Source of the DNA: Candidatus Latescibacterota bacterium
GTDB lineage: Bacteria > Latescibacterota > UBA2968 > SICM01
Direction of reading: 5' to 3'
Assembly (NCBI GenBank): GCA_965217865.1
Contig: CBDCJO010000002.1
Coordinates: 480,001 to 544,000 of the forward strand
DNA: 64,000 nucleotides
Shown here: positions 44,812 through 59,648 of the stretch, one piece after another
Layout of the letters: each line of letters begins with the position of its first letter
How positions within the stretch are numbered: position 1 is the stretch's first letter
Notes under the pieces: model-generated
Seen by the model: the letters and a program-made list of their open reading frames with translations, nothing else
Databases searched by the model: none
Told to the model about the DNA's origin: nothing
Translations under genes and position numbers: made by a program

Positions 44812-45820
44812 ACATCTCTTCATGATTGATTTCTCCTTCAATCGGGCATTGTGTGTGATGCACGGAGATCTCGAGCTACGGTATAGGCTTGCATCACCCC
44901 ATCTGATGGTCGCTGACGGCAATATAGGGCATCTGGTCGGCTACAGATCAGGTCTGGCCACACACCTGCCAGCAGCCCAAAGCCCGTGCGCTACTCCTCA
45001 AAATACCCCATGCCAATACCTTCAAGGAAGCAGACAAGGGCTCCGCAGAAAGTTCGTCGCGCAGTATTGAAACGAGTTCCCCAAGGCCGCGGGTAACCTG
45101 CTACGTCCCGGACGGTCATGGGCCTGGGATCGATACGTCTGCCATGATGGATTCCTCTTTGCAGTCGACAAATATATCAAGGAATGACCGTTTAAACCAG
45201 TTCAAATTCAGGCAGGCCGGATACATGGCCCGTCGGGAGAGTCCTTGGGCTCCGGGCGCACGGCTGTTTCCGCTGTCCGGTGGGCTGCCGTAAGCTGGTG
45301 ACCGGACCCATTGGATCCGGCTTCCGGTGAATACTTGCCGGAGGACCTTCCGAAACGTCGAACCAGGCTGTCAAACAAGGCCGACGGGAAAAACAGAGAA
45401 TCGGAGAATCCGGAAGAGATATCTCTGCTCAAGCGGACGCAACCCCACGGTTGCGCTCGAACACCTGAGGGAGCGCTTCGAAACAGAGAACCGGCAGAGA
45501 GGGGAGAGGTGGCCCAAGTGTTTGTGAATACGGCAGAAACGACAAGACCCCGGAGGGTTTCCCCACGGGGTCTTGCGTTAACGGACGACCGCCGAAGTTG
45601 GCGGATGGGAATATGGCTCCCCATATGATCCTTTCCCCGGAACCATTCTCTGTTTGTCAGACGTAACATCCTGTATTGAATGGATATATCGTAATTTCGC
45701 CCGCACCGTCGAGGCGGAAACCATGTCAAGACGTCAAGATCGATTCCCGTTTTTCCAGTCATATCAGTCGTTTCTTCCACATTGAGACCGGCTCCCCAAC
45801 TGCACCCTTTTCCTGACCGC

Positions 45821-46087
45821 TCAGTTCCTTATGAAGTAGTGGCTGCCGCAGCCGGAATTGGCCCACACGGACCCACCCCTAGGACCGTCCAGAGAGACCG
45901 ACTTGCCATCGAAATGAACGTGCCAGCGGCTTGGGTGGAGAGACAGCACTGTCAGATCGCCGCAACCGCAGGGGCAGCGCAGGTTGACAGTCCGGTACTT
46001 GTGGCTAATCCAGAGCTCATCGGCTTTGATTGCGTCAAAATCGGGCAATACGTCTACGAAGGCGGGGCGGAGTTTCACGGGCGTCAT
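45821..46087 (-). CDS. DUF6527-like small Cys/His protein
   Basis: LWIS..Y....LRCPCGCG...L...W...SL...SVW...CGSHYFIRN. Confidence 0.6.
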   Translation of the reverse strand: MTPVKLRPAFVDVLPDFDAIKADELWISHKYRTVNLRCPCGCGDLTVLSLHPSRWHVHFDGKSVSLDGPRGGSVWANSGCGSHYFIRN

Positions 46088-46210
46088 TCCTGCGAGTCAA
46101 TCTGCTGTGACAATGCGCGGCGTCTCGAGCCGGAACTTGTGGAGGAACGAAGCCGACGTCTCTCAAACAAGGTGACTAAGTATGTTACGCGATTAGTTTC
46201 ATGGCATTGC

Positions 46211-46290
46211 ACATAACGTTTTACATCTCTGACGCCGCGAAGCGGTGTAGGGGAATGGGGATAGGGGTGCTCAGGGATGTGTTGTTATCG
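46211..46290 (-). other. Integron attC site
   Basis: Minus strand CGATAAC aacacatccctga ... tcagagatgtaaaac GTTATGT, downstream of the HAD gene. Confidence 0.75.
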
Positions 46291-46373
46291 GCTGTCGCTT
46301 CGGGGCATCGCCATTTTCAGCCCTTGAGATCGGGGCGGCAATTCAGCGTGCGCCATAGATTTGTTGAATTTTT

Positions 46374-47093
46374 TTACTTCAATAGATGAGGCTTCAGATC
46401 AGACAACGATGGGATTTCTACATCAGGTTCGGGATCATGCTCTTCTCGTACTGACCCATATCGATTCAGCCATACCGAGGTAAGGCCAGCCGCGTTAGCT
46501 CCTGCAACATCAGCCGCTAAGCTATCGCCTACGTGCCAGACACTCTTACCGGATACACCAAGAGCTTCGAGCGCAGAGGTGAACGCAGCTTCGTCCGGTT
46601 TCGCAACGCCGGTCTCACCAGAGATAGCGAAGGCACTAAACCAGTTGGTGATGCCCATAGCATCTATTTTCTCACGTTGTGTGTCGGAAGCACCATTTGT
46701 CACCAAAGCGACAGGAACGCCTGATTGCCGCACTATACTTATGAGTTCTTCTACATCGGCGAAAGGCCGATAGGTATCCCGCGCGAGTTGAATTTGTGTG
46801 TCAGCGGCGACCTGAGCGAGTGACTTGTCTTCGCAGCCACAAGCCAGAAGCGCCCTTCGCCAGACTTCAAGACTGAGTTCGGCGCCGTTAAGTCTGCCAA
46901 GCGTCCAATCGTCCATGCTCTCTGGCCAGTAGCTCCTGAACACTTCGGAATCGGCCTCCCGAAGCTGCTTCGCATCTAGCTCAGGCCGAATCAAGGATAG
47001 CTTCTTGCAGGTTCGTTCGATCGACCGATGGAAGGTTTTCCCGTCGAGCAGGGTACTATCCAGATCCAGAAAGAGAGCGCGAATTCGGGCCAT
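46374..47093 (-). CDS. HAD family hydrolase (cassette gene)
   Basis: FLDLDSTL, LVTNG, AKPD, HVGDSLAADVAGA. Confidence 0.9.
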   Translation of the reverse strand: MARIRALFLDLDSTLLDGKTFHRSIERTCKKLSLIRPELDAKQLREADSEVFRSYWPESMDDWTLGRLNGAELSLEVWRRALLACGCEDKSLAQVAADTQIQLARDTYRPFADVEELISIVRQSGVPVALVTNGASDTQREKIDAMGITNWFSAFAISGETGVAKPDEAAFTSALEALGVSGKSVWHVGDSLAADVAGANAAGLTSVWLNRYGSVREEHDPEPDVEIPSLSDLKPHLLK

Positions 47094-47260
47094 CTACAGC
47101 CTCCACTGTTGGAGAAAACAACCGCGTACTCGAGGTTCGGGGCAATCAACGAGGACACGGCTGGATGGCGTGCACGGACCATCCTTCCACCTGAGGGTCT
47201 CGCAGGTCCGGATTGCTCTGGATGAAGGCCCGTGTCTCGTTAAAGAGCCTTGCTGTCTCG

Positions 47261-47605
47261 TCATTCGTTATTGCCCGGACTCTTTACTCTCGATCTCTCG
47301 ACGCGAATCCGCTCACCAAGGCCGAGATCATCCAATCCGTCGTCTTCAGTCTTGCGCACCACCACCTCTTCAGGGTAAGGCGACAACTTCGGGTGAATGA
47401 ACCAGCCGGGCGTCTGAGGTTCGTCAAGAGAACCAAGAGCGCCGTCGTGCTGTAAATGGACGACAAGGGCTCCAGCGGCTCTAGCAGCGGTCAACAGCTC
47501 AACCAGTCGATCTGTGATGGCAGCAGCCGCTGGAACTGCCTTTTCGCCTTCGAGTATCCCCTGCTGTGCGTCAACAATCATCAATGCTGTCGCTGGCTGC
47601 TGCAT
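47261..47605 (-). pseudogene. Isochorismatase/cysteine hydrolase, 3'-truncated cassette gene
   Basis: ALMIVDAQQG, VVHLQHDG, VVRKTEDDG, then loss of recognisable homology. Confidence 0.7.
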
Positions 47606-47687
47606 TCGGTGTCTTCAGGGCTCAGAAAATTGTCATGAGCGAACATCAACAATGGGTAACTACGGCGGTTTTGGTTCTGCCGCTGTC

Positions 47688-47766
47688 GGGTAACGTTCAG
47701 TGGCTCACGAACCCGCGATAGCGGGTTGGAGCGGAGCGAAGCGAAGCCGTGAGCCACATGTTAGCC
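47688..47766 (-). other. Integron attC site
   Basis: Minus strand GGCTAAC atgtggctcacg ... cgtgagccactgaac GTTACCC, with an internal hairpin. Confidence 0.85.
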
Positions 47767-47821
47767 GCCGAATCTCTGTTTTCTGGCCTTGACGACAGGG
47801 AACAGATCCTACTACCATCGC

Positions 47822-48424
47822 TCAGAGATGGTCTGGCTTGTTAATCCGGAACCCAAGTTGTGTGATCTTGCCATCCCCGAAGACGCTGTCTTCAATTTCA
47901 TCGAGTTCAGGTGATCGAAAGAAGCCGACTTTCGTAAAAAGATTAATGCTTGCCTGATTGTGTTCATATATCCCAGCGACAATGTAATTAAGGTCGAGTT
48001 CTCGGAAGATGAAGTCCACTGATAGTTGAACAGCTTCTGTTCCGTATCCCTTGAACCTAAAAAGTTCGTTGATCCAGATTCCCAGATCCGGTTCAAGATG
48101 GGCTGGAGCCAGACTGCTGCAACCAATTCGTGCTTGATCCTGCAATCGGACAATGGTGGCGTTGAACAGTTGCGGCGGTCTATCTGGGTTGGTGAACATC
48201 CCAAGGAAATCCTCGTAGGATTTCCAATCATGCTTGGCATTAAAGTTCCTCTGCGTATCGGGATCCTTCCAGGTTTGGTAGAACAGTCTATAGTCCTCTA
48301 GAAGAAACTCGGTAAGGCCAACAACCTTTCCTTTTGTGTAGAAGATTCGGCTCGAATCGTCTGAGGTCATGGATCCGTCCATTCCCAAGTTGGTCATAGT
48401 CAGCGCAGGATGATTCGGAGTCAT
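47822..48424 (-). CDS. GNAT (RimJ/RimL-like) acetyltransferase, integron cassette gene
   Basis: LGIWI...FRFKGYGTEA, HNQASINLFTKVGF; bounded by complementary core sites. Confidence 0.88.
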   Translation of the reverse strand: MTPNHPALTMTNLGMDGSMTSDDSSRIFYTKGKVVGLTEFLLEDYRLFYQTWKDPDTQRNFNAKHDWKSYEDFLGMFTNPDRPPQLFNATIVRLQDQARIGCSSLAPAHLEPDLGIWINELFRFKGYGTEAVQLSVDFIFRELDLNYIVAGIYEHNQASINLFTKVGFFRSPELDEIEDSVFGDGKITQLGFRINKPDHL

Positions 48425-48449
48425 CCTGTCATTGCAGTTTTGATTTGGC

Positions 48450-48537
48450 GGCTAACGTCCCACGGTTTGCGAACCCCCGAGGGGGTTGCCCGTAGGGCCA
48501 AGGCGCGCACGCGCCGCGGCGCAAGACGCTGTGATAT
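48450..48537 (-). other. attC site, distal part (remainder at 50161-50173, split by IS110)
   Basis: R' GTTAGCC at 48450-48456 on minus; R'' ATCTAAC at 50167-50173. Confidence 0.75.
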
Positions 48538-48620
48538 TAATCTAAAGGCCCTCGTTGTCAGGAAAAGTTATTATTTGAGGTCCGGATATCTCAATAACCT
48601 TTCCACCACAGGAGGGCCTT

Positions 48621-49664
48621 ATGCGATACGCGAAGATCGACTCCGACTATTTCTGTGGCATCGATCTCCACGCCAGAACCATGTATGTTTGTGTAATGAG
48701 TAAGATGGGGGAGATTGTGTTCCAGCGCAATCTGAAAAACGACTTCAAACTCTTACTGCAGGTGCTGGAAGCTCACCTCGGTAGCATCGCCGTCGGGGTG
48801 GAGTCAACCTTCAACTGGTACTGGCTGGCTGACGGATGTCACAAGGCCGGAATTCCATTCTACCTGGGACACGCCCTGTATATGAAGGCGATCCACGGGG
48901 GCAAAAAGAAGAACGACCGTCTCGATTCCAGAATGCTGGCAGAGCTGATGCGCTGCAACCTGTTCCCGATGGCCTATGCCTATCCGCAAGAGATGCGGGC
49001 AACCCGGGACCTGCTCCGGCGAAGGCACCGGTTTGTGGCCTTACGGGCTGAGTGCTACACCCACATCCAGAACACCTTCTCTCAGCAGGCTATCCTGGAT
49101 CCTCTCAGCGACCAGGTCAAAAAGAAGACCAGCAGGAGAAAGCTGTGCGAACGTCTGGCCGACCCAGATCTGGGTATGTCTGTGGGCTGCGATCTGGACC
49201 TGGTTGACTCCCTGGACAAAATGATCTACAAAGTCGAGAAGCAAGTCCTTGCACAGGCCAAACATCACGATCGCAATGCCCTGTCTATCCTGATGACGGT
49301 TCCCGGACTTGGGGAGATGCTGGCCATGACCATCCTGTATGAAATCCACACGGTTGAACGGTTCAAATCCGCTTCAGCCTTCTCCTCCTACAGCCGGCTG
49401 ATCAAAGTCGAGAGAGAGTCCGCTGGGAAGAAGACAAAGGACGGGAATAACAAAATCGGAAACCCACACCTAAAGTGGGCCTTCTCGGAAATCATCCTCG
49501 TGGCTCAGAGATGGTCAGAACCGATCAATAGAAACTACGAGAAACTCAAGAGCAAACACGGTCCGGGAAAAGCCAAGAGCGTCATCGCTCATAAATTCGG
49601 CGTGGCCGCCTACCAAATGCTCAAAAGTGGCCAGGCATTCGACGAGAAACGGTTTGTAGCATAA
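48621..49664 (+). CDS. IS110-family DEDD recombinase
   Basis: CGIDLH, VEST, KKNDRLDS, TVPGLG, RESAGK, KIGNPHLKWA. Confidence 0.93.
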   Translation: MRYAKIDSDYFCGIDLHARTMYVCVMSKMGEIVFQRNLKNDFKLLLQVLEAHLGSIAVGVESTFNWYWLADGCHKAGIPFYLGHALYMKAIHGGKKKNDRLDSRMLAELMRCNLFPMAYAYPQEMRATRDLLRRRHRFVALRAECYTHIQNTFSQQAILDPLSDQVKKKTSRRKLCERLADPDLGMSVGCDLDLVDSLDKMIYKVEKQVLAQAKHHDRNALSILMTVPGLGEMLAMTILYEIHTVERFKSASAFSSYSRLIKVERESAGKKTKDGNNKIGNPHLKWAFSEIILVAQRWSEPINRNYEKLKSKHGPGKAKSVIAHKFGVAAYQMLKSGQAFDEKRFVA

Positions 49665-50150
49665 TGGGTGGGGCGGTTAACCCGGCAGCTAACTGGCAGG
49701 GCAACGTCCGGACAATAGCCCAGCTCTCCCGCTGTGATTGGGAAGCCGCCTTCACCCCTTATATAGAACATAGATGAGCGGATCTGAGACAGTCAGTCCG
49801 TCTGCCCCCGCGATGAACCCGAACCTAACTGGCGTTCCCCCTCACAAAAAGGGGAGAACAGCCATCCTTCTTGATTGGGTCGCAAGGGGTACCGATTATT
49901 TTCTGGAGGGAGAGGAAAAGCCTCTCCCAGGGCGCTCCACAGAATACCGTGAGAGACGCTTGATTTCCAATACGTGTTTGGTGCAGATGGCTCACATCTA
50001 GCCCGGTATGTGAAAATCGAGCCAGACTGGCGACTGACAAAGATCCGAACATCGCTAAACCTCTTCGGATCGGCTCATTGCAAGTCCCGACCGTTAGGGT
50101 CGCAAAAAAACGGTGAAAATCGTGATGAAGGGGTCTTTTTTTCTTGACCC
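49665..50150 (+). ncRNA. Candidate seekRNA/bridge RNA region
   Basis: About 490-nt non-coding 3' end with hairpins; CGCTGTGAT (49730-49738) is identical to the left target flank 48527-48535. Confidence 0.6.
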
Positions 50151-50192
50151 GGGGCCTTTAATATGTGTTAGATGAAGTTGTCTACTACTCCT

Positions 50193-50974
50193 TCATTGTT
50201 TCGAATTGTAGGTCAGTTCCCAGTGCTTCTCCTCAGGCCGCTCTATGTACTCAATATTCTCAGCCAGACCTAATAAGGAAGGAATAAGCTCTTGTTTTAC
50301 CGGGAAATTCTTGACCATGTTGTAACTTCGCCCATCTGCGAGAACCCGCTGCTCAATAGTGTTCCCCTCCGAATTTTCTTGCCTTTGCACGGCCAATCCG
50401 GTCAAGCCGGAAACCTCGTATCTAAGTTGATCGACAAATAGCACCAAGGATCCAGGGACTAGTACTTAGTTGCGCAAGTTTATGCGTGCAAATCCGCCCT
50501 TAACATCCTGTTTTTGCTAGGAAATCATATTACGCGAATTTCCGCAGGTTGGTACTAGCTTGCGGTGAAGTGCCTTTAGAAACTCCGCCACCCGTGATTT
50601 GGGGATATGGGACCACCACCAGACCGCAAAAGCTGCTGTGAAGGTGCCGGTCAGCTGATCTAGAGAATACGCATCAGCGTGATGGAAGGTCACGTGTTGA
50701 AGTCGAGCACACCTTGCCGTAGCGCGGGAGATCATTTCGGGGTTAACGTCAGTTGCAACAACCGACCTCGCAGTTTCTGCTACTACCTCTGTCCAGTATC
50801 CAGTTCCACACGCAATCTCGAGTACGTCATGGCCCTGAAACAGTTGCTGATATCTTCTCTTCTTTGGAACGCGGAGCTGATCTGCCTGTTGATTCAGATA
50901 CCCGGCGCTAAGATCGTATTCGGAAGCGCGCGCAGCATAGTAACGGGTTGTCTCTTCGGAAATCGCATCACTAG
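50193..50974 (-). pseudogene. Class I SAM methyltransferase cassette gene disrupted by two MITEs
   Basis: [10 protein letters not shown]...[12 protein letters not shown]...ALHRKL|VPGSLVLFVD reads through once the MITE plus one CTAG is removed. Confidence 0.85.
50459..50558 (+). mobile_element. 100-bp CTAG-flanked MITE, copy 1
   Basis: CTAGTACTTAGTTGCGCAAG...TTCCGCAGGTTGGTACTAG; interrupts a reading frame with a CTAG duplication. Confidence 0.9.
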
Positions 50975-51070
50975 TACTTAGTTGCGCAAGTTTATGCGTG
51001 CAAATCCGCCCTTAACATCCTGTTTTTGCTAGGAAATCATATTGCGCGAATTTCCGCAGGTTGGTACTAG
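50971..51070 (+). mobile_element. 100-bp CTAG-flanked MITE, copy 2
   Basis: Near-identical to copy 1. Confidence 0.9.
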
Positions 51071-52274: not shown

Positions 52275-52365
52275 TTAACGCGGAGGATCACCAATTTGAA
52301 AAACAGGCGCTTTATTTCTATTCTAAATTTGGGTTCTTCACGTTTAAGAGTGGATCAATAATAAT

Positions 52366-52465
52366 CTAGTACTTAGTTGCGCAAGTTTATGCGTGCAAAT
52401 CCGCCCTTAACATCCTGTTTTTGCTAGGAAATCATATTACGCGAATTTCCGCAGGTTGGTACTAG
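52366..52465 (+). mobile_element. 100-bp CTAG-flanked MITE, copy 3
   Basis: Near-identical to copy 1. Confidence 0.9.
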
Positions 52466-58496: not shown

Positions 58497-59552
58497 ATGA
58501 GAATGAGAAAGTCTGTCTACGTGATACTGTCGGTTCTGATCGCCGGGATAGCATCGGCGAGGCCCAAGCCGATCGAGATACCGGAAGGTTACGAGCACGA
58601 CAAGTGGAACACCGCACCTGACGATGCTATTCGTAAATTCGGGGCATTCACGAGTTCGTTCGACACTGACGACGACGACACGGGCGATGGCGTAAAGGAT
58701 CTCTGGGGTATTCCCCAGTGGGTCGCCTACCACATGAAAGCGTTTCGAGGCTCGCCGGATACTGAGAACCGGCCGGCTTGGTTCACCGACAACGGACTAA
58801 AGAACCAGGGTTTCGCCCCAACGGACGATACCTATAAATACTCGAAGGCTTTTCGAAAAGCCCATCCCAACTGGTACGTCCGCGGCCACCTCTGCATGAA
58901 GCTGCACGCTGCAAGGATCAGCCCCGAGGCCGAATGGAACACCTATACGATGCTGAACGCTGTGCCCCAGCGCCAGGAGTTCAATGCCGGTATCTGGCTG
59001 GATCTCGAGCACAAGACGGCAGATTGGGCTGATCTGTACGGCGAAGTTTGGATCATCGCAGGGCCGGTCGTCGGCCTGGATGAGCCGCCTGCTCTTCTGG
59101 GGGAACCGGACAAAGACGAGATGCTCATCGCCATCCCTGACGCGCTGTTCAAGATTGTCGTGCGCAGTTCTTCAGATGATCACCGTCCGGACGTTCTGGC
59201 CTTCATCTACCCACAGCAGGACGATGGTTATGATGACGGCCCTTACGATCACACCAAATACCTGGTCGGCGTTGACGACATCGAGGCTGCGACGGGCCTC
59301 GATTTCTTCACCAGCCTGTCTGGGGCTGACCAGATAGCAATCGAACGAAAGTTGGCCACGGGTCTTTGGGAGAAGATCAACATCAACACGGCAACCGCCA
59401 ACCAGATCGAAACCATCGACGGAATCGGGGGAATCCTGGCCATGAGGATTATCGAAGGCAGGCCATACAAAACTATCGAAGAGTTTCTAAATGTGAGAGG
59501 CATCGGACCGGCAAAACTGAATGCCATCCGGCCGCACGTAACCACAGACTAG
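58497..59552 (+). CDS. Secreted DNA/RNA non-specific endonuclease with C-terminal ComEA-like HhH domain
   Basis: Signal peptide; RGHL, NAVPQRQEFNAGIWLDLE, IPDALFKIV, IEAATGLDFF; ININTAT...IDGIG...VRGIGP. Confidence 0.88.
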   Translation: MRMRKSVYVILSVLIAGIASARPKPIEIPEGYEHDKWNTAPDDAIRKFGAFTSSFDTDDDDTGDGVKDLWGIPQWVAYHMKAFRGSPDTENRPAWFTDNGLKNQGFAPTDDTYKYSKAFRKAHPNWYVRGHLCMKLHAARISPEAEWNTYTMLNAVPQRQEFNAGIWLDLEHKTADWADLYGEVWIIAGPVVGLDEPPALLGEPDKDEMLIAIPDALFKIVVRSSSDDHRPDVLAFIYPQQDDGYDDGPYDHTKYLVGVDDIEAATGLDFFTSLSGADQIAIERKLATGLWEKININTATANQIETIDGIGGILAMRIIEGRPYKTIEEFLNVRGIGPAKLNAIRPHVTTD

Positions 59553-59648
59553 TACCAACCTGCGGAAATTCGCGTAATCTGATTTCCTAGCAAAAACAGG
59601 ATGTTAAGGGCGGATTTGCACGCATAAACTTGCGCAGCTAAGTACTAG
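59549..59648 (-). mobile_element. 100-bp CTAG-flanked MITE, copy 4 (inverted)
   Basis: Reverse complement of copy 1; its CTAG includes the nuclease TAG stop. Confidence 0.9.

Follow-up and report, generated by a model that had tools for sequence, protein, structure and literature searches.

Introduction

The RNA-guided mechanism of bridge and seek RNA elements is itself already known. In IS621 and ISCro4 (Durrant et al. 2024, PMC11208160; Hiraizumi et al. 2026, PMC13626964), the RNA carries a target loop and a donor loop, a dinucleotide core is included in the guides, and the handshake bases match the exchanged strands. Handshake pairing is reported to set the direction of the reaction in IS621, and pairing before exchange to hinder excision, which is ~2,000-fold weaker than insertion (PMC13626964).

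The IS1111 family is characterized by subterminal repeats of 11-13 bp, lying 7 bp inside the left end and 3 bp inside the right one, and by the transposase motif GL-P----S(T)G (PMC11187229). The seekRNAs of ISEc11, ISKpn4, ISPst6 and ISPa11 (Siddiquee et al. 2024, PMC11187229) are encoded in a non-coding region downstream of tnp, with the guide that pairs with the top strand located 5' of the bottom-strand guide, and attC is the target of ISKpn4 and ISPst6. The target flanks of ISEc11 are needed for circle formation, and the IS1111 elements described in that report can leave only from their own target, so that retargeting requires the guide and the donor flank to be changed together (PMC11187229). 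In CazIS110-1 (10.1101/2025.10.25.684509), a free target-loop RNA and the full bridge RNA serve different steps.

Here we analyse an element at positions 48534-50165 of the window, a 64,000-nt stretch of a Candidatus Latescibacterota genome (contig CBDCJO010000002.1). It is an IS110-family member with an IS1111-like layout, and by its sequence it would work like a bridge or seek RNA element. The non-coding region downstream of the transposase gene, the subterminal repeats, the order of the guides and an attC-like target are shared with the IS1111 seekRNA elements (PMC11187229). However, its predicted RNA is ~315 nt long and has two target-type loops, whereas the IS1111 seekRNAs are reported with one target loop and lengths of 82-96 nt (short) or 151-172 nt (long), and the ISEc11 tail, inspected by eye, holds one pair of target matches. 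The target and donor loops, the core within the guides, the handshakes matching the exchanged strands and, once the loops are read in flipped orientation, their layout are those of IS621 and ISCro4 (PMC11208160, PMC13626964), although three loops are found here instead of two, the RNA is located at the 3' end, the core is TG, and the predicted donor guides lie in a multiloop, as has been noted for IS1111 members (PMC11208160). The two RNAs of CazIS110-1 come from a single target loop, whereas the two loops of the present element are encoded separately.

Elements labelled ISGsu4 (plasmid record AP028203, locus L182) have the same 9 and 5 nt outside the repeats, the same TG core and a three-loop tail. 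They differ in protein sequence (35% identity), in their right flanks, and in that the left guide of the second target-type loop tracks the target. No paper linking ISGsu4 with IS110 was found in the literature searched. The ISGsu4-labelled transposase at L182:1495-2505 also gives a weak match to the TIGR-Tas model (32 bits against a cut-off of 100).

The reading that we favour, with moderate confidence, is that of an IS110-family element inserted at the TG core of an attC-like R-box, in which one target loop (M1) likely picks the site, the donor loop would read the element ends, and the second target-type loop (M2) likely serves a different step by looser pairing with the same target flanks; excision or circle formation is the most likely such step.

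Element ends, core and transposase

A contig of run X6 spans the empty site: position 48529 is joined in it to 50164, so that 1634 nt are skipped, and 4 letters are ambiguous. Because of this skip and of free twin sites in the genome, the element is delimited as 48534-50165 plus one TG core, which stands at 48532-48533 (plus strand) at the left junction. All 14 left junctions in the genome were found by the left-end pattern flank-TG-ATATTAAT, and all right junctions by the pattern TTTAATATG-TG-flank; TTA follows the core at 10 of the 12 right junctions, one of the others having an extra TG and one being different. The fixed site and orientation, the short core and the lack of a true target duplication are those of the IS110 family. 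ATAT, considered as an alternative core, is ruled out by the junction patterns, the free twin sites and the empty-site contig. The same three lines of evidence place the ends 7 nt away from those proposed in the first-pass annotation, whose restored attC carried 7 extra bases; the correct minus strand reads ATCTAAC ACAGCG and onwards.

The left end (48534-48620, plus strand) consists of 9 nt followed by a subterminal repeat at 48543-48551, and the right end (50152-50165, plus strand) of the partner repeat at 50152-50160 and 5 nt. The repeats are perfect over 9 bp, in agreement with the subterminal repeats originally noted, and their 9/5 spacing equals the 7/3 spacing of IS1111 only when the repeat is taken as 11 bp long with mismatches in its two outermost pairs. 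Extra bases at right junctions were seen as well: the copy at G000:C2:370698-372333 has an extra TG relative to its empty twin at C2:4225771, a slip at the core, and further cases are a loose end in run X11 behind 50168 and locus L186.

The reading frame at 48621-49664 (plus strand) encodes a complete IS110 transposase of 347 aa with PF01548 and PF02371, scoring 185.4 bits against NF033542 (cut-off 140). D15, E61, D99, D102 and S267 are present as read from the alignment to ISEc11, composing a DEDD RuvC-like domain and a C-terminal Tnp domain with its catalytic serine, as expected of the IS110 family. An intact RNA-guided recombinase had been proposed for this locus, and this is borne out insofar as the frame looks intact and complete and the guide counterpart covaries in relatives. 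The assignment as IS1111-type survives in part: the IS110 family and the IS1111-like tail layout hold, with a long non-coding region downstream of tnp and the top-strand guide first (PMC11187229), but RLIKVERESAG stands where IS1111 has the GL-P motif, and the protein is only 23% identical to ISEc11 rather than alike over its full length.

Insertion site and genomic copies

The restored 90-nt site folds as a hairpin closed by TAAC/GTTA. Its distal part, with the GTTAGCC box at 48450-48456, extends over 48450-48531 (minus strand) up to the left target flank, and the right-junction TG core with the rest of the ATCTAAC box (50167-50173) occupies 50166-50173 (minus strand). The insertion lies at the TG core within the R-box of the hairpin, and the core takes in the G of GTTAG. 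The attC boxes of integrons have the consensus RYYYAAC...GTTRRRY with spacers of 5 or 6 nt. A hairpin with such boxes is found here between co-oriented single genes, although its spacers are shorter than the rule. No integron integrase passing the TIGR02249 cut-off is encoded in the genome (96% complete), the best candidate being a frameshifted gene beside an array whose two parts score 118 and 108 bits against the cut-off of 265. We therefore call the site attC-like rather than a proven attC, so that of the original description of an insertion inside an attC, the hairpin, the boxes and the orientation are retained and the integrase is what falls short.

The frameshifted gene, at G000:C2:1657172-1658351 (L246:4673-5852), encodes a tyrosine recombinase with a long N-terminal extension and adjoins co-oriented cassette-like genes and an attC-like site; its best match is the integron integrase model, below the cut-off and with model positions 181-234 unmatched. 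The minus strand of window positions 45800-51000 carries a cassette-like array of DUF6527, HAD hydrolase, isochorismatase, GNAT, unknown and methyltransferase genes. A free attC-like site lies in it at 47760, and the beginning of its hairpin is repeated at three other places in the genome. A CTAG-bounded repeat of 101 nt, which looks like a miniature mobile element or a shared element end, is found at window positions 50458-50558, 50970-51070, 52365-52465 and 59548-59648, with 19 full copies in the genome.

The element is antisense to the flanking genes and lies near the attC 5' end, as in the IS1111-attC group (ISPa21, ISPst6, ISKpn4 and ISPa25; PMC3001079). However, ISKpn4 is tabulated as inserting 6 nt before GTTAG (PMC13604230), whereas the present core includes the G of GTTAG. 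Owing to this difference in the insertion point, membership in that group, which the first-pass annotation had suggested, is not upheld. No record labelled ISPa21, ISPst6 or ISKpn4 was present among the plasmid matches listed.

BLAST recovers 16 pieces of the element in the genome, falling into two variants: variant A, which is the copy at 48534-50165, and variant B, 94.6% identical, with seven full copies. The end patterns locate 14 left junctions and 12 right ones, of which ten are paired, set against 35 free attC-like sites found in the genome. The last 13 bases of four occupied sites (198254, 369600, 1655208 and 3798141) recur in free attC-like hairpins, and C2:4225771 is the empty twin of the copy at 370698. 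The automatic fold closed the hairpin in only 5 of 10 restored sites. It gave none at the copy at 2534053, a variant-B copy (G000:C2:2534053) that nevertheless has the core TG and the right flank TTAAG.

Defective copies were also observed. At G000:C2:1604234-1604719, a 486-bp internally deleted copy retains both ends and a cut transposase, lacks the guide region and sits in an attC-like site. At G000:C2:104465 and 3773903, 51-bp left-end stubs are followed by identical foreign sequence in a duplicated region.

The 3' tail and its predicted loops

The non-coding 3' tail measures 501 nt from the stop codon to the core, close to the ~490 nt estimated previously. Its fold is better than 100 of 100 shuffles (z -3.8) and begins with two stems that carry two-sided internal loops, after which hairpins come, so modelled that the tail likely encodes a three-loop bridge RNA with M1, M2 and a donor loop. 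Both target-type modules have TAAC-TGG on the 5' side and TG-AT-TGGG on the 3' side. Read in the flipped, IS621-like orientation, the 5' side of a module would pair with the core G and the right flank and the 3' side with the left flank and the core, and the next two bases correspond to the handshake.

M1 is a predicted target-binding loop on its own stem (49666-49757, plus strand), as judged by folds, compensatory stem changes and covariation. Its predicted 5' guide CTAAC (49689-49693) would pair with the core G and the right flank; the predicted 3' guide CCCGCTG-TG (49728-49736) is followed by the putative handshake AT (49737-49738), which would read the first two bases of the element. M2 is a second predicted target-type loop (49802-49890, plus strand), recognized by the same kinds of evidence, with the predicted 5' guide CCTAAC (49824-49829), 3' guide TCCTTCT-TG (49865-49873) and dinucleotide AT (49874-49875). 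The predicted donor guides, also on the plus strand, lie at 49894-49903 for the left end (agreeing at 8 of 10 positions with the complement of left end and core G) and at 49969-49978 for the right end, core and handshake TT (9 of 10 identical to the right junction). GAATACC near 49940 had been considered as a donor guide and was dropped for 49894 after homologue comparison.

It had been claimed that a 9-mer at 49730-49738 copies the left target flank at 48527-48535. The identity is exact, CGCTGTGAT standing at 48527 and at 49730, and the 9-mer or its complement appears in 68 of 20,000 base shuffles of the tail. Because the loop reads in the flipped manner of IS621, however, the 9-mer is composed of five flank bases CGCTG, the TG core and AT, the left end of the element itself; only CGCTG and TG belong to the target. 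TGATTGGG occurs at 49735 and, as reported before, at 49872, where it ends the second target-type loop. AGACGCTTGAT is indeed present at 49954, where a partial flank match had been noted. It is part of a hairpin predicted in the donor arm and is scaffold rather than a third guide; since relatives whose targets are unrelated also keep its CTTGAT part, the resemblance to the flank is a matter of chance. Overlooked before were the donor loop and the partner guides CTAAC (49689 and 49825), which are complementary to the right flank. The earlier suggestion of more than one target loop is thus right as to the second loop at 49872, which is not an equal address as described below.

Rfam gave one chance match and none inside the element, and a promoter and terminator scan of the linear element stayed at chance level. 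The computed circle junction would give -35/-10-like boxes: TTGACC (50145-50150, plus strand), the predicted -35 box, would face TG-n-TATTAA at 18-nt spacing only on that junction. No circle joint was found in the contigs of 8 runs, and assembled contigs drop rare forms. Contigs from RNA libraries of sponge metagenomes cover parts of the tail, showing neither strand nor ends.

Relatives and scoring of guides

Relatives were collected as 160 loci by scan, 6 of 351 plasmid matches and extra copies from 17 genomes; two scans of viral contigs yielded none, and 1 of 60 genomes of relatives has a match at E 1e-60. Element ends were set by repeat geometry and not by guides, a filter that 61 of the 160 passed, the rest, lacking an end or a repeat, being dropped. 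With the additions, a quick LG+G4 tree of 87 rows was obtained, with long-branch warnings. Two broken loci with one module partly lost (L069 and L179) were excluded, giving 85 loci, 68 distinct elements and 106 sites, with one known site each for most relatives.

Conserved scaffold letters served to anchor the guides, with some of the anchors placed manually, and inspection led to the correction of five. For the 5' guide, the register giving the better score of two was used, equally in own and in swapped pairs, and own and swapped matches were compared in pairs on branch-disjoint paths of the tree. Four more distant relatives (L250-L253, ~30% identity) were folded only and stand outside the pair analysis. 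L250 and L251 have shorter tails and different ends; they may possess just one target loop, and the duplication could then be dated.

Covariation of M1 and the donor loop

Among the independent pairs, the M1 5' guide matches its own target better in 14, worse in none and equally in 9, and the 3' guide, i.e. the counterpart of 49728-49738, better in 21, worse in 1 and equally in 6. The covariation across homologues that the first-pass annotation proposed as a check is thus found for the left flank. The mean matches are 3.68 and 3.37 of 4, compared with 2.03 and 1.63 on shuffling. The second handshake base equals the second base of the left end in 64 of 68 elements (29.7 expected), the first being A by construction, and the handshake covaries in 8 pairs with none against.

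The donor loop behaves similarly. The right-junction 9-mer is exact in the own tail of 60 of 68 relatives and present with at most one mismatch in all 68, compared with 0.00 exact for foreign 9-mers (600 foreign pairings), and the pair test gives 17 for and 1 against. The left-end donor guide covaries weakly (9 for, 2 against). Target guides covarying with the target, and donor guides and handshake dinucleotides covarying with the ends, are as expected of a bridge or seek RNA, and on these sequence comparisons M1 likely chooses the insertion site.

Within the genome, the M1 of variant B is matched better by the eight left flanks of that variant than by the 35 free sites (p 0.010). The corresponding comparison for the M1 of variant A was not significant (p 0.27, n 5). 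CGCTG fits the copy at 48534-50165 in 5 of 5 positions, and the other four distinct variant-A left flanks fit in 2-3 of 5.

Discussion

Two target-type modules were located in all 68 scored elements, which departs from the scheme of one target and one donor loop. In the ISGsu4-like clade, the closing stems of M1 and M2 show compensatory changes with the guides left unpaired (22 of 23 pairs, 31 sequences). The M2 guides also track the target, at 10 pairs for, 0 against and 13 tied (5') and 14 for, 4 against and 10 tied (3'), a weaker signal than that of M1. This comparison indicates that M2 follows the same target flanks as M1, more loosely. In L065, both M2 guides have changed with the target at a distance of 0.12 from L079, and their letters differ from those of M1. 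M1 and M2 of the same element resemble each other in their guides (0.72 v 0.52; 0.61 v 0.34) and show no likeness in scaffold or handshake (0.21 v 0.24; 0.14 v 0.14; 0.25 v 0.23). Gene conversion between the modules is unlikely on this ground, since guide letters are shared but not scaffold or handshake.

We tentatively assign to M2 a role in excision or in holding the flanks. The assignment is drawn by analogy, because circle formation in ISEc11 depends on the target flanks, a handshake formed before exchange hinders excision, the RNAs of CazIS110-1 split the steps, and M2 lags behind target changes like a reader of the old site. In the proposed cycle, a circle would form and create the junction promoter, and the tail RNA would bind the recombinase, as in IS621, ISEc11 and ISKpn4. 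By the same analogy, M1 would contact the core G and the right flank through its 5' guide, and the left flank and the core through its 3' guide, while insertion would be favoured because the M1 AT and the donor-loop TT pair with the exchanged strands; recognition of the element's own ends would fall to the donor loop. M2 may then hold the target flanks during excision or direct transfer, which is the least certain step. The hairpin of the target likely adds specificity, because only about 4+2+4 bases are read.

The handshake of M2 is not ideal for such a role. Its second base equals that of the left end in 14 of 68 elements (11.1 expected) and is thus uncoupled from it; the whole handshake matches the left end in 10 of 68, including the element at 48534-50165, where the M2 and M1 handshakes are the same; and in none of the 68 is the dinucleotide the same as the right flank, by which M2 as an ideal excision handshake was rejected. 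Moreover, M2 has decayed in the attC-like group, 35 elements mostly with TT right flanks and including the present one, where its left guide does not track the target (4 for, 4 against) and is reduced to a pyrimidine tract in the element at 48534-50165. Both facts weaken the flank-holding role. Since the left guide has decayed and the handshakes are equal in this element, any division of labour between M1 and M2 is clearer in the relatives.

A more far-reaching formulation, which we regard as speculative, is that the lineage splits the transposition cycle: M1, whose handshake locks insertion, would take the new site, and M2, on the donor arm and free of this lock, would hold the old flanks for copy-out or direct transfer.

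It is unlikely, though worth weighing, that M2 is a second, weaker address, such that insertion can start from either loop and more sites become usable through M2. In the ISGsu4-like clade (33 elements), M2 tracks the target on both sides (5 for and 10 for, none against), the 10 without exception belonging to the left guide, and single sites fit the M2 left guide better than that of M1 in L153, L133, L182 and L178; the match of the M2 handshake to the left end in the element at 48534-50165 points the same way. Where M1 and M2 differ, however, the sites side with M1: on the left they follow M1 at 85 of 109 positions and M2 at 10, and on the right they follow M1 at 32 of 43 and M2 at 9. As a predictor where the site departs from M1, M2 is not significant (10/24, p 0.32; 9/11, p 0.10), and M2 as an independent predictor given M1 was dropped, as it made no significant addition. 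In G061, an element with changed M1 and target keeps the M2 of its sister, and 0 of 4 complete L041-type sites spell the right flank of this M2, which is that of the 91% identical sister L195. No enrichment for M2 was detected in the present genome (p 0.85 and 0.25).

We give slightly less credence still to the idea that M2 has only a structural place, as an arm in the donor multiloop left over from a duplication, that it is never productive on DNA and that its guide-like letters are under weak or indirect selection, e.g. for pairing inside the RNA. Its closing stem lies directly before the donor guide, the left guide is degenerate in the attC-like group, including the element at 48534-50165, M2 lags behind target changes, and the first two bases of the 5' guide are complementary to the donor-loop handshake. 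However, pairing with the donor handshake does not explain the tracking, which holds at +3 and +4 alone (9 for, 1 against) and on the left flank (10 for and 0 against at -1 alone; 13 for and 5 against at -2 to -4), and there is no homogenisation of the scaffold. That the 9-mer and the repeated motifs arose by chance, with the site chosen by protein and hairpin alone, is very improbable given that M1 and the donor loop covary with their DNA partners in independent pairs, even though the genome has many unoccupied sites that match M1 perfectly over 4 bases and a target stem-loop is reported as a specificity determinant of ISPpu10 (10.64898/2026.03.19.712850).

No second target loop in a bridge or seek RNA was found in the text of the literature searched; published figures and supplements, among them Durrant Extended Data Fig. 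10, the ISCARN28 and ISAzs32 structures and the bioRxiv supplements, may bear on novelty.

For this organism, occupancy of many cassette recombination sites by the element may freeze the cassettes of the genome. For the family, if M1 and M2 are split as proposed, the new target and the old flank would be programmable independently of each other, which no described bridge or seek RNA allows. The second target loop could uncouple the site of departure from the site of landing, and could explain how targets changed in the lineage without stranding copies. With a natural RNA of this kind, both the own-target requirement and the weakness of excision become directly testable.
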